64,000 nt of DNA from Fistulifera solaris (lineage: Eukaryota): the NCBI GenBank assembly GCA_030295235.1, contig AP026125.1:806001-870000 (forward strand), read 5' to 3'. The translations under genes were made by a program, and so were the position numbers. Positions within the stretch are counted from its first letter, which is position 1, and each line of letters begins with the position of its first letter. The notes under the pieces are model-generated. The model did not search any database and was not told the origin of the DNA. It saw nothing but the letters and a program-made list of their open reading frames with translations. This document shows positions 26,819 through 46,380 of the stretch, piece by piece.

Positions 26819-27339
26819 GCCTTTTGTCCATATTTATCGGTCGTTTATTGTTGGAGCTTTCGCCGAAGCATTTTATTCTTTGCTGGTTGATTGTGGAGTG
26901 CTTTTCTTGGTGGCGTCATTTCCGTGTTGCTGCGACCATCTCGAAGTGGTTGCGTGCCCAAAGTGCCGCTCATCGTCGCTCTCTTGGTCTTCGGCCGATT
27001 CACGCCCTTTGCCCGAGCGTCTCATCTCTCTCCGTGTCGTTTCATGGTGCTTTCTTCGATCATGACGAGCATGTGGCGAGTGACGCTTACGCTCGGCGCC
27101 CCCGGTGTTGTTTATGGAGTCAACTTGGTGCCCGCCTGGCATGGCTGCTACCAGTTTCATCCAAGTGATCGCAGCCGACGTTTGCGCCGACCTCCTGATC
27201 CTTCTTCATCTTCAAACGATTCGTCTTGTCAGCATGGTGAGGATGGTGTTTTTCGGCGTCGCAAGCAAAATCGTTTTGTCGGGGAAACTGCGAGAGGAGC
27301 AAACGTCGTCGAAGACTTCAAGCGATTCCTCGTTGGGCC

Positions 27340-30300
27340 TTGGAGCTTCCGGATATGATTGACAGCAATGGCCATTTGTGTACCGAGTCTTTAGATTTAT
27401 CGTGTCCGCCGAACGGGCATCCTAAGCCTTGGAACCTACTGGACGACTCTCTTCTGTTTTGCTATCCCACTGGGCATTTCTTTCCAGAGGGAGCTGCTAG
27501 TGAAAGTGAGACGATGTTGCTTCGAGAGGGAGATAATAGTGTAGACAACTCTAAAGCCTACTTTGCACCGTACGCGAAGCTGCCCCCGTCTATTTATGCC
27601 CTCCCTGCTTTGCATCAAGTGCATGTCGCTGGAAAGCCTACCATGGCGGATCTGTTTCCGGTTATTTGGGATACTGGAGCCACAGTTGCTGTTACTTTCG
27701 ACCGTGCTGACTTCACGTCCTACACTCCGACTACTGGCGATAAAGTTTTGTCTGGCTTTGCTGCAGGTTCTTCGATTGCCGGCACGGGCACTCTTGAGTG
27801 GACTGTTACTCTGTCCAACGGCAAGGGCTTTACTTTTCGGATCCCTGGGCTACATGTGCCCGATGCCAATGTCCGACTCTTCAGCCCACAGTCCTACTGT
27901 CAATTGGTGAAGGCGCAACGTAACGACGAACCGCGTTTTTCAGGCGACTCGAGCCTCATTCATGTCGATCTGTTGGACGGCCACTTTCTTGATATTGTTT
28001 ACTCTCCGGAAAACAACTTGCCTACTCTGGAGATGTTCCGAAAACAATCTGTTGCTCTCAATGCTGCAAAGATTCGAAACTGTGTGACCGCGGCTGAGAA
28101 TCAAAACTTGAGTGAAGCACAGAAATTTCTTCTTCGCTTACATTTCCGATTTGTTCACCCGAAGCATGAAAAATATTCAAGCCTTGCTCAAAACCGGCGC
28201 TCGGAAAGTCTGCTGAAGTCAAAGCGCGGCGTTGTGATATTCCCAAGTGCTGCTTGCATGTATGGAAAAGGAAAGCGCAAGTCGACTGGAGCAAAATTGA
28301 CCGTCGATCGCCAATCCAAAGTTCTCTCGAAGGATATTTTAATTCCGGGCCAGAAGGTTTCAATGGATCACTTCTCTGTTTCAACGAGGGGACGTCTCTA
28401 CTCTGGTTTCGGTGGTACCAAAGATGATGAGAAGTTCAAAGGCGGTGTGATTTTTGTCGATCATGCAAGTGGATTCGTGTACGTCGTTCACGTTTTGAAT
28501 TTTACTGCTGGCGAGGGCTTTCGCGCCAAGTTGGAGTTCGAAAGTGCAATGGCTAATCACGGCATCACGGTGGTCCAATATCATACCGACAATGGCACGT
28601 TCTGGCGCAGGAGTTCACAAAGCAAATTGATACTGAACTACCAGTCGATGACTCTCAGTGGACCTGGTGCTCACCACCAAAATGCTGTTGCTGAGCGCGA
28701 TCGGAAGTATTATATCTCTTGCACGCACCACGATGCTACATGCTAAACTGCGTTGGCCGGCGATTTCTTCGGATTTGTGGCCTCAGGCGATCGATTATGT
28801 CGTTCAAAATTTCAACTACGGACCCGGCGAAAATAATTCATCTCCGGCTGATATGATCTTCAGAACAACGACCGATCGAAAAGTGTTTGCTGATATGCAT
28901 GTATGGGGATCACCCGCGTATATTTTGAACCCTCAATTGCAAGATGGGCACAAGATTCCAAAATTTGAACCTCGCTCGAGACGCGTTTTCTTGGGTTTGT
29001 CAAAGCGGCATGCATCGAATGTTCCTGTCGTTCTGAACCTAGAAACAAACCGGATTTCCGCGCAGTTCCATGTTGTTGTTGATGATTGGTTTGCCACTGT
29101 TTCGAATGTCGCTAATGAGGATGATTCTGTCGATCCGGAGACTTGGGCCGACATCTTCGCATCATCTCGCTTTCAGGTATTTTTCGATGAGGATGATCCG
29201 ATCGACTTGGATGATGAATGGTTGAGTCAAGATGAGTTGCATGTTCGAATTCAAGAGCGATCTCGCAAAATTCGAAGCGTCCAAGACACTGCTAGCCCTC
29301 CAGTTGATTTCGACAAAGTGCACCAGCGATTACGAACCGATGCCGAGCCTACAACTGAAAAGAGTTCAAACGAGCCTACATTGCAGAGGGAGCCAGAACA
29401 AAAGACAGTTACTACTCCTGTTAAATTATCTGAGCCTATTTCAAAGCCGGTTGAGCCGATTCCTGCTCCAAAGGTTGCTGTGGATGCCAAGCCTCCATCA
29501 AGTTCGCCAGCGGAAGAAGACACCAGCTGTTCCTGCCGAACCTCGCCGATCCACTCGCGAGACGTGCTCCAAAGAGATTCAATGAATTTATTACAAACGT
29601 TGCTTCGGTTGTTCTTGCGCCGATTCCTCGCGAAACTTTCTCTTTTATTGCGTCGATTCATTCCGGCCTTGTTGCTTGTTGGGATTCGGAGATCGGCGAG
29701 TTTGATTTGCGCGACCCTGTTGCTTTTGCGCTATGCAGCGTGCAAAGAAGCCAAAGAAAGGTTCCGATCCCGACTATCCAATGTATCATCAAGCAATGTC
29801 GTCTGCCGAATATCGAGAATGGCAAGAGGCGATGGTGAAAGAAATTCGAATGTTGGAGATGATGGGGACGTGGAAGAAAATTCCGCGAGCTTCAGTACCT
29901 GCGAATAAGCGCGTGATAAAATCCACTTGGGCGTTTCGGCTTAAACGTTCACCGGATGGGACACCCACGAAGTACAAGGCGAGGTTTTGTGTTCGTGGCG
30001 ACATGGAGATAAAAGGAGTAGACTACTTCGAGTCCTACTCTCCTGTCGTACAGTGGTCCACAGTTCGGTTGCTGTTAATTATGTCCATTGTCCACGGAAT
30101 GCATACCCGCCAAGTTGATTATGTCAATGCGTTTGCTCAAGCCCCTTTGCCACCTACTGAAGAGTGCTACATTGAGATGCCTCAAGGATTTCACGACGAT
30201 GGCGAAGACACTGTTTTGATGCTCCAGAAGACGCTTTCACGGAAAGTCCGACAGTCCACTCCGATTCTTCAACTTGTTGAAGGACACTTTGGAGAAGCAT

Positions 30301-31493
30301 GGTTTCAAACAGTTGGTCGACATCGATGCTTGCCTGTTCGTGCACGAAAATTATTTGTTTGACTTATGTCGATGATTGCCTTTGGTTCAGTCTCGATGAA
30401 AAGTGCATGGATGACATGATTGACACTATTGACAAGGTTTTAACTTTAACTGTGGAGTCGAAAGATGTTTCCGCGTTCTTGGGAATTCAGTTTACCCGTC
30501 GTGGAGATACTATCGAGTTGACCCAGAAAGGTCTCATTAAACGCGTCATCGAAGCCACCGACATGGCTGATTGTAATTCTTGCGACACGCCTGCTGAAAA
30601 CAAGCCATTGGGAAAAGATTTGGCTGGTGCTGCGTTTGCCGAGTCTTGGAATTATGCTTCGGTTGTCGGAATGTTGCTCTACTTGTCGTCAAACTCTCGA
30701 CCGGATATTGCATTTGCTGTCCACCAGTGCGCTCGCTTCACTCATTCACCACGGCAAAGTCATGCTAAAGCAATCAAGAGAATAGTGCGTTATTTAAAAG
30801 GAACGGCCGATCGTGGTTTGGTGATGCGTCCGACGAAAGAGTTGAAAATTGATTGTTTTGTTGATGCCGACTTTGCCGGATTGTGGGGTGCGGAAGATCC
30901 TGAAGATCCGATAAGTGTGAAGTCGCGTACTGGTTATATTTTGACGCTCGGCAATTGCCCCCTACTTTGGGTATCGAAGCTACAGTCTGAAATCTCTCTA
31001 AGTACGATGGAGAGTGAATATGTCGCATTGAGTACCGCCATGCGCGATGTTTTGCCGATGCGAAGACTTGTTACTGCTGTTGCTAAGGCTATTACTGGAG
31101 AAGACCAAGTCGAGAGCATTGCCCATTCGGATGTATTTGAAGACAACAATGGAGCGCTCACTCTTGCTACAATTCCGCTGGATGACCCCTCGCTCGAAGC
31201 ACTATGGCACGAAATATCATTTCTTCCGACAACATGTTCAAAGTGGTGAATTGAAAATCAACAAGATTGACACTAAAGAACAGCTTGCGGATATCATGAC
31301 GAAAGGATTGCCTAGGGAAACGTTTACCTATCTTCGAGACAAGTTAATGGGTTGGGTTGAAAGTGATCCCTCTTCGTCTGAGAGGGAGTGTCACGGAAAT
31401 GCGGATAGCGGGCAGACTACTAGGGACTCAGCCAATATGGCCGCACGACCTAATGCGAATTCCGATCCCCAAATCGGAAGCATCCGAATGTAA
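27340..31493 (+). CDS. pol: Copia pol (protease, integrase, RT, RNase H), multiply frameshifted
   Basis: WDTGA protease; MDH/TDNG/QNAVAER integrase; YKARFCVRGD, DYVNAF and YVDD RT; DADFAG, EDNNGA and QLADIMTKGL RNase H. Confidence 0.93.
31380..31388 (+). promoter_or_regulatory. Polypurine tract
   Basis: GAGAGGGAG immediately before the 3' LTR TG. Confidence 0.85.
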
Positions 31494-31839: not shown

Positions 31840-32364
31840 ATCATGGTCGCGCCTCGCGCGATCGCGTCGCGAAAAAATGCTCCATCTTACGGGTTACGGG
31901 ACTGATGATCTTTGAAGTCGTGAGTTAGGGGACAGTGGCTTAAAGTGTAAACGGAGTATTACTTTTTCCAAGACAGGATTTCGGTCACGAGACAAAACTA
32001 CCTTTTACTCACTTTGCTTCCCTCGTATCTGCAAACGTCACGCGTAAACCTTCAAAAATTATTATTTTAATATTTGCTTGTATTGTGAGACACTCTGTTG
32101 CATTTCCAAGCCGTTGCGCGATCATATTTGTCGAGAAATAACATCATTCCTTAGGGGTTATCGCTGCGCTAAGGGCAGCGTTAACCAGAGTTGATCCTAA
32201 ACCTTACTTCGCCTCAAGTTTTACGTCCTCCCGGAATTCCCAAGAACACACCGCAGCCGCAGGGTCAGAATTTCGGTTCATTTCCTCTCCATTCCATTTT
32301 CGTCCAAATCTATTTACAAGAAGTAGTCGTAAACACAAATTCTTGTGCAAAAGGAGCATCATTA

Positions 32365-33660
32365 ATGAAAATGACGTTTTGGATGTCTGCTACAGCCATA
32401 GCAGCCAAGCTAGACAGGCTTCGAGCTGCGGAGACTCGACTGCTGGAGCTCGCCCATCGTTTCGGACGTAATCGAGCCAAGATTGAAGTTGTTGATACGT
32501 TCATTCCGAGAAATCTCATTCCGCTGGTCTCTCATGACCATGATCTGGTGAAACTAGGAAATGACGATGATTCTTTTGTGATACACAGTGTAAAAGTTAC
32601 GTCAGAGCAGGACAAGACAGAAGAAGTTAATGCACCGCTGGTGTTGTTGCACGGCTATATGAATGGTGCCGCCTATTTTTATCGCAATTTGGTGGGTCTC
32701 AGTAGCGCCTTTGATACCGTACACTCAATTGATTTGTTGGGATGGGGTTTGTCCTCGCGTCCCAGGTTTGAATTGAAACAAATAGAGGAAGAAGCGAGTC
32801 ACCAGTCGGATACTTTCATGGTGCGACAAGCGGAACACTTCTTTGTGGAATCCCTGGAGGCATGGCGACATTCTCAGGGAATACCCAAAATGGTGTTAGC
32901 CGGTCATTCCATGGGAGGTTACATCAGCGTTGCATACGCCGAACGCTACCCAGAGCGCGTGGAGAAGCTGGTATTAATATCGCCAGCGGGAGTGCCCGCC
33001 GAAGAGTCGCCCGAACGACAAAAGAGACTCGATGAAGCACGAAAGAGGTCTCTTTTCTTTCGATTCGTTGTCGGTACATGGTCAACACTATATTCATGGA
33101 ATAGTACTATTGGAAGCTTGCTGCGGATGTTACCGGAAGAGAGGGCCTATGGGTCGGCCCTTGGGTATGTGCAACGCAGGCTTCCTGCCATATCGGATGA
33201 AGAGGAACAGAAAGCTGTCACAGATTATTTGGTTTTGAATAATCTTCTTCCAGGATCGGGGGAGTACTGTGTGGGTGCATTTTTGACACAATTTCTGCAG
33301 GGTCGCGAGCCTACAGAATTACGTATTCCTAGATTGAAAGTTCCATCCGTATCGTTTCTGTACGGAGCACAGGATTGGATGGACATTCATGGAGCTCTCC
33401 GAGTTGAGGCGCATTGCGGGGACGAGAAAGATGTTGCTGTATACAGAGTCAGCAACGCAGGACACTTACTCATGCTTGAAAATTGGCAAGAATTCAATAA
33501 TGGATTAATACACGCAACCGGAAGGAAAATGAACGGTATTGGTTCTCTGCCAGAACGTGTAACCCCTTCTGACGTTCATTTCCGTGATGCTGCTCGAATT
33601 ATGTCTGCTTGGAAGAACGGTGTCTCAGAAATAAGCTCAGAGAGTCTTGAGGCGTCCTAG
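32365..33660 (+). CDS. ABHD4/ABHD5 (CGI-58/Ict1)-like alpha/beta hydrolase
   Basis: LLHGY, DLLGWGLSSRP, FVESLEAWR, GHSMGGY, LISPAG, YGAQDWMD and AGH motifs. Confidence 0.87.
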   Translation: MKMTFWMSATAIAAKLDRLRAAETRLLELAHRFGRNRAKIEVVDTFIPRNLIPLVSHDHDLVKLGNDDDSFVIHSVKVTSEQDKTEEVNAPLVLLHGYMNGAAYFYRNLVGLSSAFDTVHSIDLLGWGLSSRPRFELKQIEEEASHQSDTFMVRQAEHFFVESLEAWRHSQGIPKMVLAGHSMGGYISVAYAERYPERVEKLVLISPAGVPAEESPERQKRLDEARKRSLFFRFVVGTWSTLYSWNSTIGSLLRMLPEERAYGSALGYVQRRLPAISDEEEQKAVTDYLVLNNLLPGSGEYCVGAFLTQFLQGREPTELRIPRLKVPSVSFLYGAQDWMDIHGALRVEAHCGDEKDVAVYRVSNAGHLLMLENWQEFNNGLIHATGRKMNGIGSLPERVTPSDVHFRDAARIMSAWKNGVSEISSESLEAS

Positions 33661-33717: not shown

Positions 33718-35617
33718 CTAGAGCAGCCCTTGTCGGGCAAGATCCTCGTATGCAGTCCTTGATAATATATTTCCGTGAGAATCCTCAAACTGCTCCTCTT
33801 CTGCTCCGTCAAATTGATTCTGATTTAGTTTAGCACCAAGATTTTCCCAAAGTCTCTTTGCATCATCGATGTTGGTGACACCATGAAAATGCTTCGTGTT
33901 TGGTATTCCCAGACTTTTTCATTCCCGCAGCGTGGCGCTGCTCAGCAAAATGGAGCTCAAAGTTGCGTCGTCCCCGATAGCTTTCCCCGCCGCAAATCTC
34001 ACAGGGATAGTAGTGATTCAATCCATGTAATTTGAAAAGCCAGTAGGCGATCGGTTTGCCATCCCAGTCGAGAGGGACGTTCTTGGGATTGTAGATGGGA
34101 GCATCATCATCCGAGTCACCATCATCGTTACCTCTCGTTCCCGATTTCTTCGTCGCGTCGGCGGGTACCCCGTAGAGATCTTCCTGGATTTCTCGTTCGC
34201 GTTCTGCCAACGTTTGCGTCATTTGTCGCTCACATCGTCGAATAGATGCATCCAAAGTAGGTCGTAGCTGGTCAAGAAAAGCTTGGACGATGAACTCTTG
34301 CCGAGCAATGTCAATACGCTGCATGGAAGATGACGATGCATTTGACTTTTTCGCGAATAGCGAGGGCGGAAGCTCTTCTAACTTCTTATCACGTAACAGG
34401 AATAATCGTTTAGCCCGGTCGAGTGCAGCACCGCCACACTTCAGACCGAGTCGTGACAGCTCCAACTTTAACTTGTCACCGTCAACGGCTTCTGCCAATT
34501 CCTCCGGAGTCGAGAACTGGGAAAGGTCCAAGCTGGATGACGCCGTTCCACTCGAGTTGTCTTCTGCTAATGCAGCTTCGATCGGTTTGCACGACCAGAC
34601 CGTTGGTACACCCCCTTTTTCCCTCCAAATGTCGTTACACTTTTTCAACGCTTCCATCTCAATGGCTTTAGCGTCGATCAAAGGAGCCGTTCGGTTCAGA
34701 AAGGATTGAAGGTAAGTCTGTAGAGACGTCAAAAATCGAACATACTTTTTTCGATTAGATAGTTTCGCAGCCTCGTCCATCGGAAAGGCGTGACTGCCAG
34801 TATTGTCCAACCCGTTGGCAAGAAATTGCAAAAAGTCGATATATTGACCCATCTTTGTTTCCGATCCAGAGAAAAGACCATCTTGTTGAGTCTGAATGTA
34901 AATCGCATGAAGATCCAAGTATTTTCCGAGCACTTCGTCCGGCGAAAACACAGATTCTTCATTCTGCAAACCTATTAAACGCTGCTGAATCGTAGCGGAA
35001 AGATCGTATCCATCCGCAGCCGGATTTCCCCATCGCCGGCGTTTGTGAGGTCGTGAGGAGTCGTCTTCCACGTGCAAAGGTTGATGCCGGGCATGATAGA
35101 CTCGCAAAGCCTGCAATCGTTCATCCAATAATTTGAGCCATACGTTGGGATCCTTGGGTTGTGCCTTCAAAACAGACCAGGCTTTCTGCAGCGCGGCACC
35201 TTCCAAAAGTCGATTTGCCGTCATGTGCTGCGCCTGTTCCGCCATTTGTTGTACACTCAAGGCTTGAACGGTTCGATGAACGGTGGTGGCCCATTGTCCT
35301 CCGGCCGTTGGGTCGCTTTGTGGAGGTAGAGAAGCAATCCCTTCTTCGGTCAAATCCACAATGGTCGAGAGCGCGTCTTGCACTCCTCCTGTGGTGATCG
35401 GTTCACTTCCCGGATCGAGTGCTTTAATCAAACCCAGCGGTACTTTGAGAAGCGATGAACCTAGGACCGTCCATGCTTCCATCTCGGCTTCGTTACACCT
35501 CGCTTTCTCTAGAATGCGCGTTGCTTGGGCCATGGCCTGTCGCTGAATTTCTTCCGGATTGTCGATGATTACATCGGTGCTCTCTTGTGCGGCATTATCC
35601 TCCATTTCCGTCGTCAT
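33718..35617 (-). CDS. SF3A3: Splicing factor SF3a60/Prp9; apparent frameshift near 33915
   Basis: GKYLDLH, GLKCGG..RAKRLF, YNPKNVPLDWDGKPIAYWLFKLHGL, CEICG..YRGRRNFELHF.E.RH, and a terminal YEDLARQGLL in the shifted frame. Confidence 0.93.
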
Positions 35618-36177
35618 GTGGGCTCAATACTGAAGCTTTCGCTCAGGTAGTCTATTTTAAAAAGGTTTGATATTTGAAACGAAATAACGCGTGTCATCAT
35701 CATCATGGTCGGGAAAGCATCGACAAAACCCTGCCGTTCTTGAAACGTACCACGGACGGACGAACTCCATCTCTAATAAGATCCAGTCAAAGCATACCTC
35801 TTGCGTCAGTGGGAGTGCGCGTCAAAAAGTCAAAACCGCCAACGTCTGTGCATCGCACCAACTTGAAGTCCTCTTCGCCGTGCGTGCAGTATCCAACGAC
35901 CCAAGCGACATCCGTCATCGACGACCGCGCCCACCATTTTGCAACACTCGATGATTTTGCATTCTCTTTGTTGTGAAAACAGATCGTTTGGAAGCAACCC
36001 TTTCCTTTAGTTCCTACTACGTTCCTCTTCTTGCAAAGAAAGAGTGTAGTGTATCCCCGTTCGTTAACATTCGGCAGTAGCTACTTTAACGAGTGTTTTC
36101 CTTCTCCTCCGAACGACGTGTCGCAGTTACTTTTACTATTACTATTATTAGAAACAACCAAACGACTTAAAATCATC

Positions 36178-38626
36178 ATGAAGTTCAACGTGGCGGTCCT
36201 ACTACTGTCGCTGCAAGCGACTTCTGCTTTCTTGTCCGGGGAACGAGTGAATCGTGTTTCGGTGATGCAACGAAGTATGGCGGTCGATGTCGACTTGTCC
36301 ATCCCGTACGATGCGGCGGCTCGGTTGGCCTACGACGAATGGCGCCAACAATTCAATAAGGGAGCATTTGATGAAAAGCGATTTGTGTCTTTTAAAGCGA
36401 ACTACGAGGCTGTGACAGTAGCCAACGTGGTGGCCAAGAAGGAGGCTCGTGAAAGTGGCTCGGACGAACCGCTCGCTCTGATGACGCTCAACGAGTACGG
36501 TGATTTCACGGAGGAAGAATTCTCTCAATTGTCGTCGGGATCTGGTTCGGCGACAGGGAAAGTGTTGGAGAAAGCTTTGGAAGTGGCTCAATCGCAGTCA
36601 GAAGCTAGTTCCGCTTTGGAAGAAGCAGCCAATGCACTGGCGGCGGAAGAAGAGGTAGGTAGTTTGTGCGCGTTCGTAGGTGACGTAACCAATGGACTGT
36701 ACTGATGGTGTCAAACTTTGTGTTACCCTGCTTATACTACAGGAACTTGCTGCCAAACTCGGTTTGAACAGTGTAGACGAGCTGGAAGCTGCTCTTGACT
36801 CGCTCGAAGGCATTGCCGAAGATGGAGGAGCCATTGATGACAACCTGGCTCGTGAAGCACGCGTGCGATCTGCTTATATGAAATGGTGTAAGGATTTTGG
36901 AAAAGATCAAAGTGAGGAGCGTTTTCAAAAGTTTTCGGAGAACTACTTGATGATGGAAGACTATGCGAAGCAGTCCGGAAAGGAGATGAACTTGAATGAG
37001 TACGCCGATTGCACAAAGGAAGAGTACGAGGCCATCGTTTTGGAGGAGGCCAAGAAACGGGTCGCCGAGAAGGAGAAACAAGCCGCGGAAGCGAAAGCGG
37101 CGCGCGACAAAGCCGAGGCCGAGGCGGGTGCAGCACGAAAACAGGCTGCTGCCGCTTCCGATGCCAAAGTTTCGATTCCTAATGTTGTGATGGGTAAGGA
37201 TGACGCTGATACAGAACTTGTCAGAGCCCAGAGACAGGCAAGATTCGAGGAGAATCAAAAGAAAGCTCAAGCTGAAATTAAGGCGCGAGAAAAGGCTGAG
37301 GCTGAGCGACGCGCACAGATTGAGAAAGAACGCGCCGATCGACAGAAGGCTCAGGAAGCGCAAAAGCAAAGGCGGCAGCTGAAGCTGCGGCTGCAGCTAT
37401 CGCCGCAGCAAAAGCAGCTCAGGACGCTGAGGCGGCCCGACAAGCGGAACGTCGTCGAATCGAAAAGGAAGCTGCGGATCTTGTTCGAGCGAAGGCAAGA
37501 GAAGCTGAAGCGAAACTAGCGAAGGCAGCCTCGAAAAAGACCTCGGTGACTGAAACACCGAAGAAGAGCAGAGCCCCCGCTTTTTCTTTCTTTGCAAAGA
37601 AAGAAGAGGTCAAGACATCCCCTGCTCCTCCTGCTTTCAAACTTCCCCTTGTATCGGCCCCTGCTCCGGCACCGGCCAAGAAAGAGAATGCTATGTTCTC
37701 ATTCCTCTCCACTCCGGCAGAAAAGCCAAAGGCTTCGCCCGCTCCTGCGCCTGCAAAGAAAGCTCCTGTACCTCCAAAGAAAGAAGAAAAATCAATTCTT
37801 TCTATTTTCTCCGCTCCTGCTACAAAAGCCGCTCCCACTCCTCCCCCCGCTCCCGTAGCGAAGAAAGAAGAAGCCAAACCGCTTATTTCTTTCTTTTCGT
37901 CTCCTTCACCTGCTAAAGCTCCAGCACCCGCGCCAAAGAAAGATATACCCGTTCCTAACAAGCCAGGTACACTCAGTTTGTTTTCGGCAAAGAAACCCGA
38001 GGTTCCCAAACCTCCCGCTCCGAAAAAGGATATAAAAGTGCCCAACAAAAGCGGGACTATCAATCTTTTTGGCGGTGTACCATCTAAACCGAAACCAACG
38101 CCGGCGCCCGTGACTAAGAAGTCTCCCACTATCAGTCTCTTTGGTAGTCCATCAAAAGCAAAACCTCAGTCTGAACCTGTAAGCGAGCAAAAGCCCAAAT
38201 CCAATACAGCCCCGACGTTTAGTCTATTTGGAAGTGCTTCCAAGTCTCAACCGAAGCCTGCACCTCCCGCTCCAGTTGAAAAGGCAGCGCCCACAATCAG
38301 TTTGTTTGGCGGAAAGAAAAAGGTTGAGTCGACCCCTGCACAAGCTTCACCTGCCCCTGTTAAAGCTAGTCCCTCCTTTTCTCTTTTCGGTGGCAATAAT
38401 AACCCAGCAGCCAAAACAACGCCCGAAGTAAAGATTTCGAAGGCTCCTCCTGGCGTCCCAACGCTTTCACGCTGGACGGTCAATCGAGATGGATCTGTCA
38501 CCGGAAATATTAGCAACTCAAAAACTTCCGCAACGGTGAAAAGATCACAACATCTCCTATCAAGGGAAAGCGCAACCAGGATCTGTGGTTTCAACAGGAT
38601 CTGGTAGCAAATACTTTCTGTCTTAA
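36178..38626 (+). CDS. Plastid-targeted multidomain protein: 2x I29-like, coiled coil, Pro/Ala/Lys-rich repeats, C-terminal beta-rich (PyShell-like?) domain; intron 36655-36742; apparent frameshifts near 37362, 38523, 38568
   Basis: MKFNVAVLLLSLQATSA-F presequence. ORFs 36031-36705, 36692-37519 and 37546-38607 join into one gene with the intron plus single-base fixes in A runs. Confidence 0.8.
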
Positions 38627-38664
38627 TTATTACTAAACATTTAAATCCATGATTCGTAAGTTAT

Positions 38665-41600
38665 TTATGTCATCCGTGATAAATGGCGAAGTAAGCACAG
38701 CGAATGTTGCATCTGTGTTCGAATCACAAGTGAAGCCTCGTGCTGTGACTTTTTCAATCGGCCAATTACCTGTAGGAGAATGTCATACTCCTTAACATTG
38801 CGCTCCTCGTTCATGTGAGAATCGTCGTTCACGTCATCTCTTTTGTACGTATCAAGCTGAGCGATTACCTCAGTATGCACATGTAGGAAGCGGTGAATGT
38901 ATGCATTAACGGCCTCACACCGTTCCCTGGACTGGGAAGCTTCTAATAGCCATTGTCCAGCGAGAACAAGTAACTGCAGTCCTTCGTCTAGATCGTGCAT
39001 TCCATTGCAAAGGGACGATAAGGCTAGGTCTATAGCGGATGGTCCACACGTCGCAATATAGTCTGACACATCTTGAAAGCTGCCTTTACTGCTGCAATCC
39101 TGGAGGAGTGACGCCAATTGGGATCTGTAATGGGTCACCTTTCTGCGTTTATTAGAATCTGGTGCTTTGAAGCCTTCTTTGTCAGTGGGTGCACCAACTT
39201 CGATCTCTTGTCCTTCGTCGTCGTCGGTCCATGCCGAGGCCCACGTATCTTCCGCCTCTTTTCCAGTTTCTCCTTGATTTTGTTCACTTGCAGGTGGTGC
39301 CATGTCGATTGCTTCTCCACCACGCCACTGAAGAAAAAAAGGCGCTGAAGGAGGCTTTTGGGAGGCTCTTTAGGTTTATTTCTCTCCTTTACCAACTCGA
39401 GATGAAATAAGTTTTTCCAGTGAGCAGGTGGAAGACCGGAAAGTGTGATGAGACCCTTTTCCTTCGCCGATACTGGCCCAGCTTCTTGATCTTCGACGCT
39501 CTCTGCTTCACCGGCTGATGGTGAGAAATTTGAATCATCTGCAGCTATGATAATTCCAGTATCCTCTGAAATCGGAGTCGGTTCATCCATGAGAAAAGGT
39601 TTATCCAAAGCCAGTCCACTCGTATTGACGCGCTGATAGTAGCTACGGTCGCTCCACACACTGATGCCTACTTTTCCGTCGTGAGTTGTTGCTATGTACT
39701 CGCCTGTCGGGCTTACAGTCAGAGAAGTCGGCACAGCCTTGAAACACAACCAATCAATGCACGTGGCTGTAGGGACATCATAGACACGAACCGTGCCGTC
39801 CAATGAAGATGTATACATGATGCGACCATCAGGACTAAAGTCGAGGTCGCTGACGGGACCACTGTGCTTTGCAAACCGTCTTACAACAGAGAGAGCAGTA
39901 CAATCGAACAACACTACGCTCATATCTTCCATTGCAACTGCAGCTAGATCCGAATCGCGAACATGCGCCAGTTTTGTAGCAGGACTGGGTAAAATGAAAG
40001 GGCTTTTGGTGTGCGGAGCGTGTGTGGCGAAATTCCATAACGTAAGTTTCGAGTCGGACCCAACGGAAATGACTGTTTTGTTAACAGAGTCGACTGCTAA
40101 GCCGGTTACAGCAAAGCCAACGTGCGCCGCCTGTTTAATCTTTTCCTGAATGTATTTCTCGCGCTTTAACTCATTCTCCATATCTTTCTGGCGTTTGTCC
40201 AGATTCGCCGATCCACGATGATTGCCTTTCATTTCCTTCTGCATTACTCTCATCGTACGATTGATATCTCCGGATATGAACTTTTTTCGCGTCGGACCCA
40301 CTGCCTCCTTTTCGGCAGGATAGCTCCCCGTGGTAAACCACTTTGGATGTTGTACTTGTAAATTGTTCCACCTCGAGTCCCAACTAAAACCATGTTGCCA
40401 CAAGAAGATATCGCGACAGCAGTGGCATGACATTCTGGAGGAGGAGCCTTTTTCCGTGCACTAATGTTCCAATCGGGCTGTCGCAACAATGGGCCTGACT
40501 GCGCTCCTCGTCGAGTACTCCACACATACGCGAAAGCATGATTCTTGTGAATCGTAACAAGATCACCCCAATCTCTTCGTCGTGCTTCGCCAAGAGCCAT
40601 TGCTGTGACCGGGGGCAATAATAACTCAGCTTCGCTGTCCAAACCAAGTGTACGAGCTTTCTTTTCAAGCCCAGCGCCTTGACTGTATTCCTTATCCAAT
40701 ACACTCCTTGCTGTTGAAAAGACGCGCAAAGTACGGTCTGGCCCACCAGAAGACAAAAGCTGACAAGATCGGGCGTCGGTTCCGTCGACCGAATTTGCGG
40801 TAATTCCATTGCCGTACAAATAGTTGATGCGACAAGGAGGTGCGGTATGTCCACGTCTTTTACGCAAAAGTCTAGCCGAATGGTCCGGGTTGTCAAAGAT
40901 ATGCATAAGAACAGCATTCGATTGGGTGCCCGATGAAATGAGGAGGGGCTCCTGAGGCATGTACTGCAACTTTGCCACGCCTCCCGGCGCATGGACACGA
41001 TCCAAAGTGCACAGAATGGCTCTACCGGCATTTGGTTCTTCTGGTGGTGTCAAGTCCCAAATAGTAATACTTCCGTCGGATCGACCTACCGCCATGGGGG
41101 CGATGCCATAATTGACTGCGGATGCGTCGTCGCGAAAGGATATGGAAGTGATGGTGACTGTTTTCGAATCATGCCCAAAATGGCTCAGCGAAAAAGGACT
41201 TTATCATGACGTAAATTCACCAAATGAACCAATCCTTGATCGGTACCGACAGCGATAGTATCGATGGCGGGCGACTGTTGAAGGGTTGTGATGGAGCGAC
41301 ATTTCGTATCTCGGAGACAAACGAATTCGTGAATGACCTTTTTCGAGCGTACATTGAGCAAAAGCATCGCACTATGTCCATTTTGTGAACCACCAACCAC
41401 AATTTTGTTCACGTAAGTCGACGGGTGTGTAGCGACAACCGGAATAAACGCTTCTGGAAGCTGAATCCGACGATCAATGCGGAGGATGGTTCGCGTTGCG
41501 ACCAAAACCACAACCTGTCCCCCTAAATTCCTACCGTCCTCGCCAGCAACAGATTCATCATCACTGCTACTACTGCTGTTCGAATCATGCGCATTGTCTT

Positions 41601-42134
41601 GAGTTTTGCAGTTCGATAATATTGCGACAATGATGGCAGCATTCTCGTCTTTTCCGGTTTCCGCACGAGCCACAGGCATTCTTCCCAAATGCAATAAATC
41701 CTCAATTTTACCTCCCAACGATACAGTCGCCATTGCTTTGGTTCTCTGAAACAATGTAATAGAGCCCTTCCCGTGTGCGACAACAGTAATACTCATACTG
41801 GCGTCCGCCACATTGTGGGTAATGGGAGGAGTCGCCACCGCTTGACCCATGAGAACGGGCTGAAGTTTATCAGTCTGCATCAACTGGAATCGATCTTCAA
41901 TCGGTACACATATCATAGACGTCTGGCTGTTTTGATGCGGAATGAAGGAGAAGCCAGCGCCACTGGAGACCAAACCCACCAGACGGTAGGGTGTGAAAAG
42001 ACGCGACGATCCGGGCGATGACAATTTTGTCGGGCTGGCCAGTGTTGTGTCGACTTCATCGATCGACGACTCGTCGTCGTCGCTGCTATCCGAGATCACG
42101 GGTTGAGCAACCGCTTTTCTCTTTCAATAGACAT
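38665..42134 (-). CDS. UTP21: WDR36/Utp21 WD40 U3 snoRNP protein; several apparent frameshifts
   Basis: SRLFTPYRLVGLVS, HPSTYVNKIVVG, SPAIDTIAVG, RRGHTAPP, YNIQSG, LITLSGLP..HWKNLFHLELVKERNKPKEPPK and GPSAID motifs. Confidence 0.9.
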
Positions 42135-42578
42135 CTTCAAAGAAATAAAGAAAATAAACAATAGACGTATTGTTGTTTATTATTTGTTGTTTAACCGAGA
42201 CAAGGAATTCTGAAAAGTTGCCTCCGCCATCCGCGAAAAGATGGGTGGTGTTGAGCTGAGTCCTGGATTGGCTTGACTCACGCGCTTTACAACGGAACCA
42301 AAAATACACCCGACGAGCTACAGACGAATGTCTACCCGGTAGGTACCGGTAAGATGTCCTTAATTTAACTAGAAAATGTCGTCTCAAACCCCACGATAAG
42401 AAAATGACTGCGACAAGCCGAAACAAAAGACTGCGTTGCCGCGATTTTTCGTAATGCGTTGATTGTTACGACGAGTAGTTTGTGAGGAAACCATAATTCC
42501 TTTCATACTCTCTTGTCTCTCTCTCTTCAACGAGCTCAATAAGAAGAAGTAACATTTTTACTTGACAAGCAAGCTCTC

Positions 42579-43688
42579 ATGAGTAGCAACCGGACCCATG
42601 AGTTCCTGGCGTTGGCGCAAAGCCTCCCCGCCGGTCCACCGCCGCCGACGAACGCCAACGGTAAAAAAGGAGACAGTGATGCCTATCAAGAGTTAAGGAA
42701 TTTCCATACCACAGCGGCAGGAATTAGTCGTGATATTGCGGGCACATCTGCGTTACTATCGGAGCTGTCGAATTTGGTGCGACAGGGATTTGCGCAACCG
42801 CAAGATCAAGCGCGGATGAATCAGTTAGTGATGCATATTAAATCACAAATTGAAGGACTCAATGGGAGACTCGATCAAGCGTCAAATACAATGCAAAAGC
42901 AGCGACGGAAAGTGGGGCAACAAGCGGGAGAAGAGGCGGCGAACATGATGGATGGCTTAAAGTCTACGTTTGCCGAAGCGGCGTCCGATTTTAAGAAAGT
43001 ATTACAAGAAAGAACAGACAATATGAAGGAAGAAACGGATTTTCAAAAGCAAGTGTATGATTACAACAATGCGGACGATGACGATCCCATACCCAACATG
43101 AGCTCCTTATATGCTCCGCCAGTGTTTGGTGGTGCGAACAGCAATGGGTTCCCCGCGCTGGATCTAACGAGTAGTCTCATGTCACCAGCAGACAATACCA
43201 GCTCCTTACCGCGGCCGCACGGTATTTCTTCATCGTACTCCGGTGGCGATATTCGACAAAGACGGCCTCTGGAGTATAATAACTCGTACGGGAGCCAGAA
43301 CTCGTTTGGGGGCAGTCTGTACTCCACATCGCAAGCTCCTTTGACTCCACTTGATATACAAAGAATGGAAGAAGAGAGAGGTTTGCAACAGCAACTGATC
43401 CCAGATCAAGACTACTTACAGCAGCGAGCGGATGCCATGTCGCAGGTAGAATCAAATATTGTGGAATTGGGAACGATCTTCAACAAGCTAGCGGTGATGG
43501 TCCAGGAGCACCGCGAAATGGTGCAACGAGTGGATGACAATGTTCAGGACGCAAATACAAATATCAACATGTCGATGGAAGTGCTAACGGACACACTCAT
43601 GAGTTTACGCACGAACCGTATGCTAGCGTTGCGGGTGTTCTCGGTGCTGGTGCTTTTCATTATTGCTTTCATCATCTTTTTTGCCTAA
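42579..43688 (+). CDS. STX5: Syntaxin-5 (Sed5/SYP3) Qa-SNARE
   Basis: N-terminal NRTHEF, SNARE motif RADAMSQVESNIVELGTIFNKLAVMVQEH.EMVQRVDDNV and a C-terminal TM anchor. Confidence 0.9.
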   Translation: MSSNRTHEFLALAQSLPAGPPPPTNANGKKGDSDAYQELRNFHTTAAGISRDIAGTSALLSELSNLVRQGFAQPQDQARMNQLVMHIKSQIEGLNGRLDQASNTMQKQRRKVGQQAGEEAANMMDGLKSTFAEAASDFKKVLQERTDNMKEETDFQKQVYDYNNADDDDPIPNMSSLYAPPVFGGANSNGFPALDLTSSLMSPADNTSSLPRPHGISSSYSGGDIRQRRPLEYNNSYGSQNSFGGSLYSTSQAPLTPLDIQRMEEERGLQQQLIPDQDYLQQRADAMSQVESNIVELGTIFNKLAVMVQEHREMVQRVDDNVQDANTNINMSMEVLTDTLMSLRTNRMLALRVFSVLVLFIIAFIIFFA

Positions 43689-43851: not shown

Positions 43852-45188
43852 CTATTCCTCCTTCGATGCAGAATTTGGGTGCGGAGGGGTCGAGGCATCA
43901 CTTTGTGATCGATCGGTGATGGGGAGCAATCGCGCTGCCCTACTCACCGCGCGTCCTCGATTGGAAACAAAGAACGAACGTCGTCCCCGTCCCGACTGAA
44001 TGCTAATCGGGGAATAGGGCGGCATGTAACTACTAGATCGACCCGATATGCCTTCGGGATGATAATTTACAAACACGGGACGTCCTTCCATATGATCCCA
44101 AGGATTCGTAGAAGAATCATTCAAACCGGGAGGAGTTTTGATTCGGTCTTGTTCAATGTCTGGCGTAGTCGGAGATCCTCCAGCAGCGTGGTTGGAATCG
44201 CTGGTCTCTCCTTTCTCAGTGCCGCCAACCGAAAGAGACGGAACACGCAAAATCGATCGAGGAGAGCTGTTCAGAACCTTGGGCAAAATCTGTCGAACCG
44301 GTGTGTCTTCATTGGATGGAAGAACCATCTCGCGGCAGAGTTCCGGCGTGTCGCGGCAAAATTTCTAAAGGAAAAGATATTATGAGATAATGTTTTAAAA
44401 GAGTCCGCAGAGCGATCGCCACACCAACGTACCTCGTGCGTGTAGGCACCGACATCCGCGCCTTCCGTTTCCTCACGAAATCCCCAGGCCGAAATGTGAG
44501 CCAGGAAAGCATCCATGGACTGGAGTTGAGGAAAAAACTGAGGCAGAATCGACCGACGAAGTGCTTCCCAACGGACAATTCGCCACGCCTTGCCGTGCTC
44601 CAACCACTCCAAGACACCATCTTTGGATGCCGTTAGAAGCATGTGCAAGACGGAGGGAAAGTGCGGAACGACAGCCGCAGCAGCGGGGATAATAGTGCCG
44701 TGATCTTCGTCCTCTTCACGAGAGTACTGTGTGACTTGCGTGCGGTCGTCCGCATGTGACGAAACCGGACTTACATGGAACGGCATGGGAGTCGCTAAAG
44801 TCTTTCGCTTCTTGAGAGGACGATTTCGATCGTCGGCAGATTCAGAAGAATCTTTCGCCAGCAGGAGAACCGAGGCGGCGACCTGGTGTCCGCGTTTCGC
44901 CAGAGAGGACGCCGAGCTGGTGCTATCATGAGAGAGCACGGTCGACATAGCGGGAACATGCCGATAGTGGTGATCTTCCACAGACGAAGACGATCGTATC
45001 TGATGAATCATAAGAGACGGATGGTGGAAGTGAGGGGATGTAGGCGCAGCCCTCATCCACGGAGGTGAATGATGGCGATTCGCATGCATCATGCCATCGG
45101 TCGAACGATAATCCATACGGTAGCCCGATAGAGGGAAAGATGCATTGGGAAGGTGCTGATGTTCGTGCGATTGTCGTGAATGCGGCAT
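43852..45188 (-). CDS. Divergent HSF-type DNA-binding domain protein; intron 44365-44432
   Basis: FPSVLHMLL..LEWLEHGKAWRI..ILPQFF..FLAHISAWGFR..YTHE/KFCRDTPELCREM after splicing. RPLKKRK NLS-like motif. Confidence 0.8.
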
Positions 45189-46380
45189 TCTTCAGATTTG
45201 AAATGCAAAGACTCGACTTGGAGCGCTACGGCTATCGGCACTATTATGTATCTTGACCAGTGGGAGAATAATATTTCTTGTCCTTTTCTTGCGATTTATC
45301 GTCACAGAACGCTCATCATGGGGAAGTAAACGCCATTTCTCAAACACAAAGCGTCCGTTGGTCTAGGGTGCGCGCCATTTCTCTCTAAGTGAAAGAGCCA
45401 ACGGATGCTACGAAAGCGTTGGTGGATCAAGTTTCAAAAAGGTGAGACGGGACACTTTTTCTCCGCCGTCTATTTTGGACTTCTAAGTGCTTCACTCAAC
45501 AGATGGTTGAGTTTTCTTACATAACTCCAAAATTGATTCAACTGATAATTTCAGCAAATGCTATGACAATACATTGGATTCTTGGTACCGGTTGAAAATT
45601 ACTTAGTAAACAATACCACAGTGCCTAGGGTTAAAGATAAAATATCAAAAGAATGAAGCTGTACAAAGTACAACATAACTGTGAACTGTAGAGTAGTGAA
45701 AATGTCGTACCAGTATGTATGTCGTATGTCGCATGAACTTCAACTTATTTCCAAGTTATTATGCCCTTTGCCCTTTCCGTTTCCCACGAATTCCTTGAAA
45801 AAACGGGTTAACTTTCTTATAAGACATCAAACATATTGCCACGTGTCAAGGGTCATGGTACGCAGTACGTAGTACAACGAACAACAAACAACAACGGGCA
45901 AACACCAAACACTCAATACTACTAATACGCATACATCATACTCTTTTCTTTTACTGTGCACCAAGTGACACGTGACAACAACACACGATCTACATGATGC
46001 AATAATATGACGCAGCATCGCAGCATCACTCAAAAACACAACACACAAAATCCGAAATCGGTACTGTACTTATTACTCTTTACTCTTATATGCGGTGGAC
46101 GATGAACGCGTTCGATGTTCCACGGGTCATACTACAGTATGTATCACAAATACCAAATACTCTACTACAGTACGTACTTTCGGTTCTGGTCACTGTCAAT
46201 TTCTACTATCTACTTAATTGTAGCTGTAGAAGAATCAAGCTTTTGTGTTCGCGAAGGAAAAACGAAGATTCAGATTTCAGATTTCGAATGAGCAACTCGG
46301 CCTCCTTCCGAATTTTCTTCCGAGCGCGCTTTTGTAAACTTACCAAGCATTTCGATTCATTCGCCGCATAATTCTTTGTC

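Follow-up and report, generated by a model that had tools for sequence, protein, structure and literature searches.

The window analysed here, a stretch of 64,000 nucleotides (nt) of Fistulifera solaris DNA (GenBank assembly GCA_030295235.1, contig AP026125.1, positions 806,001 to 870,000, forward strand), carries at 36178-38626 a plus-strand gene that the assembly presents as a series of broken open reading frames (ORFs). We find that this is an intact and expressed gene for a conserved, plastid-targeted protein, which would probably act as a multivalent scaffold in the plastid stroma, a reading to which, taken as a whole, we give a probability of about 0.6. The predicted protein combines a pair of I29-like domains, a long charged helix, a disordered arm with ten regularly spaced short motifs and a C-terminal beta domain that belongs to a large diatom family. 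An earlier reading of the sequence (the original prediction) had joined the same ORFs into one gene and had likened the C-terminus to a conserved region of PyShell, the protein that encases diatom pyrenoids; the first of these proposals has held up and the second has not.

One spliced gene and three one-base deletions of the assembly

The gene runs from an ATG at 36178 to its stop codon at 38626, with exon 1 at 36178-36654, an intron at 36655-36742 and exon 2 at 36743-38626. As assembled, it is divided into three long ORF pieces (plus strand, frames 1, 2 and 1) and two short ones at the 3' end (frames 3 and 2). Since exon 1 is 477 nt long, the splice preserves the frame. The features that define the gene model are as follows.

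36655..36742 (+): intron, 88 nt, GT..AG (GT at 36655-36656, AG at 36741-36742); spliced contig of run X3, and switch of the orthologue tblastn frames at this point
37367..37370 (+): first assembly error, a base lost in or beside an AAA run; contigs of runs X1-X3, tblastn frame 2 to 1
38519..38524 (+): second assembly error, a base lost in an A5 run; contigs of X1-X3, tblastn frame 1 to 3
38561..38563 (+): third assembly error, an A lost; contigs of X1-X3, with an X2 loose end at 38563, and tblastn frame 3 to 2
38624..38626 (+): stop codon TAA

Splicing and the frame breaks were examined on contigs of four public runs (X1 to X4) aligned to 36100-38700, the X4 contigs having no coverage of the three break sites. 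The intron is retained in contigs of X1, X2 and X4. In one X3 contig, of depth 22.4, exactly 88 nt with GT..AG ends are absent, at a cut equivalent to 36655-36742, and the intron is therefore spliced in a transcript. Thus the gene is transcribed, as seen in this single spliced contig, with no run of X1 to X4 being recorded as RNA. A contig of X2, a wetland metagenome, lacks 66 nt inside the intron (36667-36734, with ends GC..TT), which looks like an intron indel variant of a related strain rather than a splice.

Contigs of three runs carry an extra base at all three breaks. At the first, an A is added behind 37367 (26 of a depth of 52.3 in X1, 18.2 of 18.2 in X3) or a G behind 37368 (14.9 of 14.9 in X2). 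The second shows a G behind 38522 (14 of 14 in X1, 10.1 of 21.2 in X2, 12.7 of 12.7 in X3) or an A behind 38519 (11.1 of 21.2 in X2), and the third an A behind 38561 (14 of 14 in X1, 20.2 of 41.4 in X2, 8.23 of 20.9 in X3). Where the support comes to about half of the depth, the remainder consists of contigs that terminate at or near the site; for example, X3 record 23 terminates at 38561, and X2 records 15 and 16 terminate at 38563, the extra A being present in their loose end. In tblastn alignments with three orthologues the frame order is 1, 2, 1, 3, 2, an exact match to the breaks, and the coding sequence written with X at the breaks is 2364 nt long, that is, 787 codons and a single terminal stop. 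A search of JGI metagenome contigs with the last in-frame 100 amino acids (aa) gave 598 pattern matches, of which tblastn confirmed none. A word-index search with the in-frame part of the C-terminus (P0002, residues 345-400; proteins of 234-748 aa) raised ten candidates, and no candidate scored.

We conclude that this is an intact, spliced nuclear gene and that the three frameshifts are one-base deletions of this assembly. The joining of three ORF fragments across the intron at 36655-36742, as originally proposed, is borne out by the spliced contig, the orthologue frames and the uninterrupted coding sequence, and so is the proposal that the frameshifts are assembly artefacts. The single-A corrections that went with it stand in part: one base is missing at each site, but the best-matching run adds a G at the second (giving AAG, still Lys), and the A missing at the third lies in the neighbouring A run. 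Every inserted variant nevertheless encodes the same residues as the earlier reconstruction, and the deduced protein is unchanged by either correction.

The gene occurs in two forms in runs X1 and X3: one matches the window completely or almost so, and the other is about 5-9% different, mostly at third codon positions; the divergent form is a second allele, a paralogue or the copy of a sister strain. Among the variants listed between the window and a second haplotype or strain, 34 of 40 fall at codon position 3 (a further 111 variants lie beyond those listed), a distribution that indicates purifying selection.

The predicted protein and its beta-domain family

The product of 787 aa is divided as follows, residue ranges being those of the protein.

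36178..36228 (+): endoplasmic reticulum (ER) signal peptide, 17 aa, followed by Phe18 (TSA-F, an ASAFAP-type plastid motif); from the sequence
36229..36312 (+): transit-peptide-like stretch, residues ~18-45, basic and Ser/Arg-rich; from the sequence
36334..36522 (+): first I29-like domain (cathepsin propeptide inhibitor type); Pfam PF08246, 19.5 bits, E 0.0013, profile positions 2-59 of 59
36884..37027 (+): second I29-like domain; Pfam PF08246, 20.6 bits, E 0.00056
37061..37554 (+): long charged Ala/Lys/Glu/Arg-rich helix, residues ~266-430 (~165 aa); composition and orthologue model
37555..38445 (+): disordered P/K/A/S-rich arm, 297 aa, residues 431-727; composition, motif scan and orthologue model
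38446..38623 (+): predicted 60-aa beta domain of five strands, from an undescribed diatom family, with a weakly SANTA/RFTS-like fold; orthologue alignment and AlphaFold2 (AF2) model

The hydrophobic signal (residues 1-17) followed by Phe18 is the stramenopile arrangement of an ER signal plus an ASAFAP motif, and the composition of the transit-like stretch points to a stromal destination. We compared 23 related N-termini by eye (19 orthologues and four more distant relatives with I29 plus the beta domain): a signal followed by A, S or G and then F was clear in 13, ambiguous in three, and in the other seven the N-terminus was truncated or showed no such arrangement. This agrees with the plastid targeting that had been proposed from the TSA-F motif.

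Exon 2 used as a query matched 20 proteins at E<=0.01 (8000 scored), and a profile of 12 orthologues matched 42 at E<=1e-10 (7998 scored). Of 17 tails compared, 13 have the C-terminal beta domain and the other four belong to multi-I29 proteins or fragments. The named records come from Entomoneis, Amphora, Mayamaea pseudoterrestris and Pseudo-nitzschia, together with names beginning 'Amphi' and 'Steph' (the latter of Stephanopyxis type), and they are annotated just as hypothetical or as 'cathepsin propeptide inhibitor domain-containing'. The complete architecture is thus shared by pennate and centric diatoms. Three diatom-type proteins (P0004, P0005 and P0014; 1581-1926 aa) have very high exon 2 scores, Pfam I29 and an I29-like end, and no beta domain at the C-terminus; in the organisms concerned, the I29 module seems to have undergone an expansion of its own. 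Structural statements below rest on folds and profiles built from orthologues, not from the window's own protein, and chiefly on an AF2 model of one orthologue, P0017, which was run with a 12-row alignment.

The I29-like domains span residues 53-115 and 207-254. They were scanned as separate exon pieces, and both scores in the feature list are below the Pfam gathering score of 24.4 bits; among whole orthologues, four of five exceed it (32.0, 41.4, 32.3 and 34.4 bits), each with two stretches, and the fifth, which is N-truncated, reaches 18.6 bits. The P0017 model has helices at 51-125 and 197-267 with a predicted local distance difference test (pLDDT) score of about 78-93 (about 78-89 in the second), a propeptide-like helical fold. 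In a Foldseek search with this model the best row was 5ef4_B, the propeptide of a pro-cysteine-protease (probability 1.00, E 0.045, 77 columns), and the top rows were pro-forms of papain-like proteases and isolated propeptides (also 3f75_P and 5z5o_B) at E values of 0.045-0.4 for a query of 891 aa, with a SANTA entry next. The tandem I29-like domains of the original prediction are thus well founded, with two hits here and stronger ones in the orthologues.

Behind them, the charged helix contains 33% Ala, 49% EKRDQ and 10% LIVMFWY, and in P0017 a single helix at 291-420 is modelled with pLDDT 70-88. It may be a coiled coil, as had been suggested, or a single charged alpha-helix: a long helix is indeed predicted, but with hydrophobic residues at only 10% the second form is equally possible.

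In the arm, a scan for the motif phi-[STN]-phi-[FL] found ten copies, whereas shuffled sequences have 0.18 on average and three at most (0 of 5000 shuffles reach ten). They start at 37582, 37696, 37798, 37885, 37972, 38059, 38131, 38218, 38296 and 38377, are spaced by 24-38 aa and include 16 of the 17 Phe residues of the arm; the last starts 23 residues upstream of the beta domain. Residues 441-725 are rich in Pro (21%), Lys (16%), Ala (14%) and Ser (12%), with an isoelectric point (pI) of 10.2, and the arm has neither Trp nor Tyr. In the P0017 model, nearly the whole of 422-827 (and also 1-47) has pLDDT <50. The regularity of the motifs and the disorder of the orthologue's arm both agree with the long disordered sticker-repeat arm that had been described earlier.

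Conservation within the protein is highest in the beta domain. The tails of 11 orthologues align (alignment A1) over 65 columns, 20 of them invariant, and AF2 folds this alignment into five strands with pLDDT 89.2; in the model of the whole of P0017 the strands lie at 837-890 with pLDDT of about 90. A folded, beta-rich C-terminal domain, as first proposed, is therefore well supported by the orthologues; its assignment to PyShell is not. Neither the A1 profile (E<=10, seven matches) nor a profile of the whole protein (A2; E<=1, ten matches) found PyShell among all chain sequences of the PDB, in searches that had no positive control with a PyShell sequence, and PyShell is absent from the rows that Foldseek listed for the beta domain and for the whole orthologue model, an absence that by itself does not settle the fold. 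As described in its preprint (10.1101/2023.10.25.564039), the PyShell monomer has 16 beta strands in two sheets, split into conserved regions CR1 and CR2, with eight strands per region, that are each >50% hydrophobic. Here there is one domain of five strands in ~60 aa, the rest of the protein being helical or disordered, and the last 60 aa of the window's protein contain 25% AVILMFWYC (23% VILMFWY). On profiles, models and a comparison of strands and hydrophobicity by description only, all of which went against the proposed resemblance, we detect no relation between the two, and a likeness to PyShell is not supported.

Six of the seven PDB matches of A1 are designed 'Cake' propellers and the seventh is an S-layer protein. 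We regard the propellers (E 3e-5) as a repeat artefact: the score is a sum of 6-9 stretches of ~2 bits each, all on a 14-residue F-x-x-G-x-x-I-x-x-S-P-V string.

Foldseek with the beta domain found nothing in the PDB at E<=0.001. Its top row was the SANTA domain of M18BP1 (9r6h_A; E 0.019, probability 1.00, TMq 0.58, 62 columns, 19% identity), and the other nearest folds were the RFTS barrels of DNMT1, DIM2 and MET1, all weak matches with scores in a commonly seen range. The Pfam SANTA profile (PF09133, gathering score 21 bits) matched one of 138 proteins scanned, at 18.7 bits and so below its cut-off (0 of 5 orthologues, 1 of 28 family proteins and, at E<=0.1, 0 of 105). Because the best structural match is weak and the Pfam score stays below the cut-off, the domain would be at most SANTA/RFTS-like in fold, and by the same evidence it is probably not a member of the SANTA family. 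The ESM Atlas, searched with the domain of an orthologue, gave no usable match.

With the A1 profile we searched 1.84 billion representatives. At E<=0.001 there were 905 proteins, of which 646 stayed at or below 1e-10 and 132 at or below 1e-30. The domain is present in 204 of 224 proteins examined, with 398 copies in total (one copy in 61 proteins, two in 108, three in 24, four in seven, five in three and six in one), and forms the end of the protein in 174 of the 204. A motif of the form [ILVFM][ST][ILVFM]F occurs within 60 aa upstream in 122 of the 364 domains that have enough upstream sequence, compared with 9 of 364 after shuffling, at a median distance of 22 residues, and many family members have Ala/Glu/Lys/Arg-rich helical stretches between units. 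All members with a named organism are diatoms; those with names, from Skeletonema, Striatella and Leptocylindrus, are all 'uncharacterized'. No Pfam family covers the domain in the proteins scanned (5 orthologues and sets of 28 and 105 family proteins), and full-text searches on diatom I29, SANTA and FG-repeat plastid proteins yielded no description of it. By sequence, then, the domain defines a large diatom family that has no Pfam model and appears undescribed, and defining it would provide an annotation for hundreds of 'hypothetical' diatom proteins.

Several paralogues (P0024, P0025, P0028, P0030, P0039, P0059 and others) consist of 2-6 units, each with a phi-S-phi-FG motif, a short linker and a beta domain. 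Their unit spacing (median 22 aa) agrees with the gap between the last motif and the domain in the window's protein.

A proposed stromal scaffold and its alternatives

From this architecture we propose that the protein would be a multivalent scaffold in the plastid stroma. The FG-like motifs would make numerous cohesive contacts, each of them weak, as in condensate formers of the sticker-and-spacer type, the charged helix could serve as a spacer or oligomeriser, and the beta domain and the I29-like pair would be protein-binding ends that tie the arm to its partners. The family-wide pairing of motif and beta domain suggests that the two work together, by mutual binding or through one shared partner. 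FG-repeat nucleoporins likewise have Phe-Gly-type motifs in a long disordered spacer, which suggests a cohesive, gel-like behaviour, but the spacers here are basic and rich in Pro, Lys and Ala, and the protein has a plastid presequence; the Pfam Nucleoporin_FG profile (PF13634) scores 16.8 bits (E 0.013), below its cut-off of 32.2.

Several points weigh against a scaffold of this kind. The model of the whole orthologue docks no motif on the beta domain in cis and leaves the arm below pLDDT 50, and a classical coiled coil would call for more hydrophobic residues than the helix has. Of 170 family proteins with an initial Met, just 21 showed a signal plus F, in a scan too crude to give a plastid-targeting rate; many of these N-termini are unreliable metagenome gene calls. 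Protease control, and not scaffolding, is another role that the I29 domains could indicate. A study of the T. pseudonana pyrenoid reports no pyrenoid protein with a ~60-aa repeat (10.1101/2023.10.26.564148), which argues weakly against an abundant matrix linker of this kind in that species.

Control of a protease is an unlikely explanation in our view, if the least so of the alternatives. The protein would regulate or chaperone a papain-like cysteine protease of the plastid, with the I29 pair inhibiting or holding the enzyme and the rest only positioning it, as the Pfam I29 matches of the orthologues and the structural resemblance to propeptides and to CTLA-2/crammer, a free inhibitor, would allow. 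The two helical domains match the I29 profile end to end, and domain 1 contains an R-x3-F-x2-N-x3-V-x3-N string, which we take to be ERFNIN-like. However, neither this protein nor the five orthologues scanned contain a protease domain (peptidase C1), the beta domain, and not the I29 pair, is what is best conserved, and, unlike the known inhibitors, the pair is fused to a helix, an arm and a beta domain and sent to the plastid. Diatoms are not known to have a plastid papain-like protease. A Rubisco linker or pyrenoid-matrix scaffold, in which the basic arm with its ten stickers condenses Rubisco and, in diatoms that lack PYCO1, takes the part played by PYCO1 in P. tricornutum, seems slightly more doubtful still. 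With EPYC1, CsLinker and PYCO1 the protein shares plastid targeting, a basic and disordered character, and regular short motifs in a sticker-and-spacer layout, and its occurrence in both centric and pennate diatoms would suit such a role. PYCO1 is the only diatom linker named in a 2026 review (PMC13655443); it is not a conserved protein and does not occur in centric diatoms (10.1101/2023.10.26.564148). Since the present protein is conserved, plastid-targeted and equipped with a sticker-and-spacer arm, and PYCO1 is not conserved, it is a reasonable candidate to study in this respect, and a pyrenoid role is possible. Against this, the arm lacks the aromatic Trp and Tyr, the protein has no KWSP (KWSPRGGS) or GTGYNP, the motif spacing is shorter than 60-80 aa, and there are folded domains at both ends. 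The same T. pseudonana study reports no repeat protein among its pyrenoid proteins (10.1101/2023.10.26.564148), and the supplementary data examined from the PYCO1 paper make no mention of I29, cathepsin, propeptide or inhibitor.

The basic K/P/A-rich arm could also bind DNA in the manner of a histone H1 tail, which would make the product a plastid nucleoid or nucleic-acid-associated protein. The nearest folds of the beta domain, SANTA and the RFTS barrels of DNMT1, DIM2 and MET1, are chromatin-reader-like and would fit, but SANTA proteins (M18BP1/KNL2) and DNMT1 are nuclear chromatin proteins, not plastid ones, and we think this improbable. Two further readings are close to excluded. In one, a PyShell-type region at the C-terminus lets the protein link the pyrenoid shell with Rubisco, thylakoids or a protease. 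Both proteins are indeed encoded in the nucleus and share a plastid presequence of the stramenopile type as well as a folded part rich in beta structure, and PyShell is described as a stramenopile plastid protein with beta-sheet regions (10.1101/2023.10.25.564039). However, the profile and fold searches did not return it, PyShell (PDB 8WQP) builds a lattice from its two regions, where a single small domain, 25% hydrophobic, is found here, and the beta domain has a large and separate family of its own, so that a tether of this kind is very improbable. In the other, the gene is a decaying pseudogene with real frameshifts, as three frame breaks within 2.4 kb of assembled sequence might suggest; their repair in contigs of three other runs, the spliced contig, the excess of variants at codon position 3 and an essential neighbouring gene that is broken likewise leave this hardly credible.

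The preferred reading, a multivalent stromal scaffold, can be extended to the paralogues. Tentatively, and at a likelihood that we set as low as that of the Rubisco linker, the protein and the multi-copy beta-domain paralogues could form a diatom-wide plastid network that organises Rubisco or the pyrenoid, including in centric species without PYCO1; the phi-S-phi-F(G) motifs would then be ligands of the beta domain, or both would share one partner, leading to a condensate or gel. If true, this would be the missing general scaffold of the red-type pyrenoid. Diatoms account for roughly a fifth of global CO2 fixation.

Neighbouring genes

The gene lies among ordinary neighbours that have no evident link to it: an alpha/beta hydrolase (32185-33660, +), an SF3A3/Prp9 homologue (33863-35623, -), a syntaxin/SNARE protein (42543-43688, +) and an HSF-type DNA-binding protein (44271-45191, -). 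Upstream, at 27241-31493 (+), is a Ty1/copia-type pol region with Pol_BBD, SH3_retrovirus and RVT_2 (the last split over two ORFs), which occupies five overlapping frames and is either decayed or broken by assembly errors.

The nearest neighbour is a UTP21/WDR36 homologue at 38665-42123 (-), convergent with the gene studied here, its 3' end lying ~40 nt from the stop codon of the latter. In the assembly it appears as four ORFs that overlap and differ in frame, across which the coordinates of the Pfam profiles run on (PF04192 5-94 then 36-208; PF25168 11-149 then 144-326; PF25171 98-186 then 188-266). Because this essential gene is frameshifted in the same way, one-base indel errors are general in the assembly, and such systematic one-base deletions matter for any gene call made from it.

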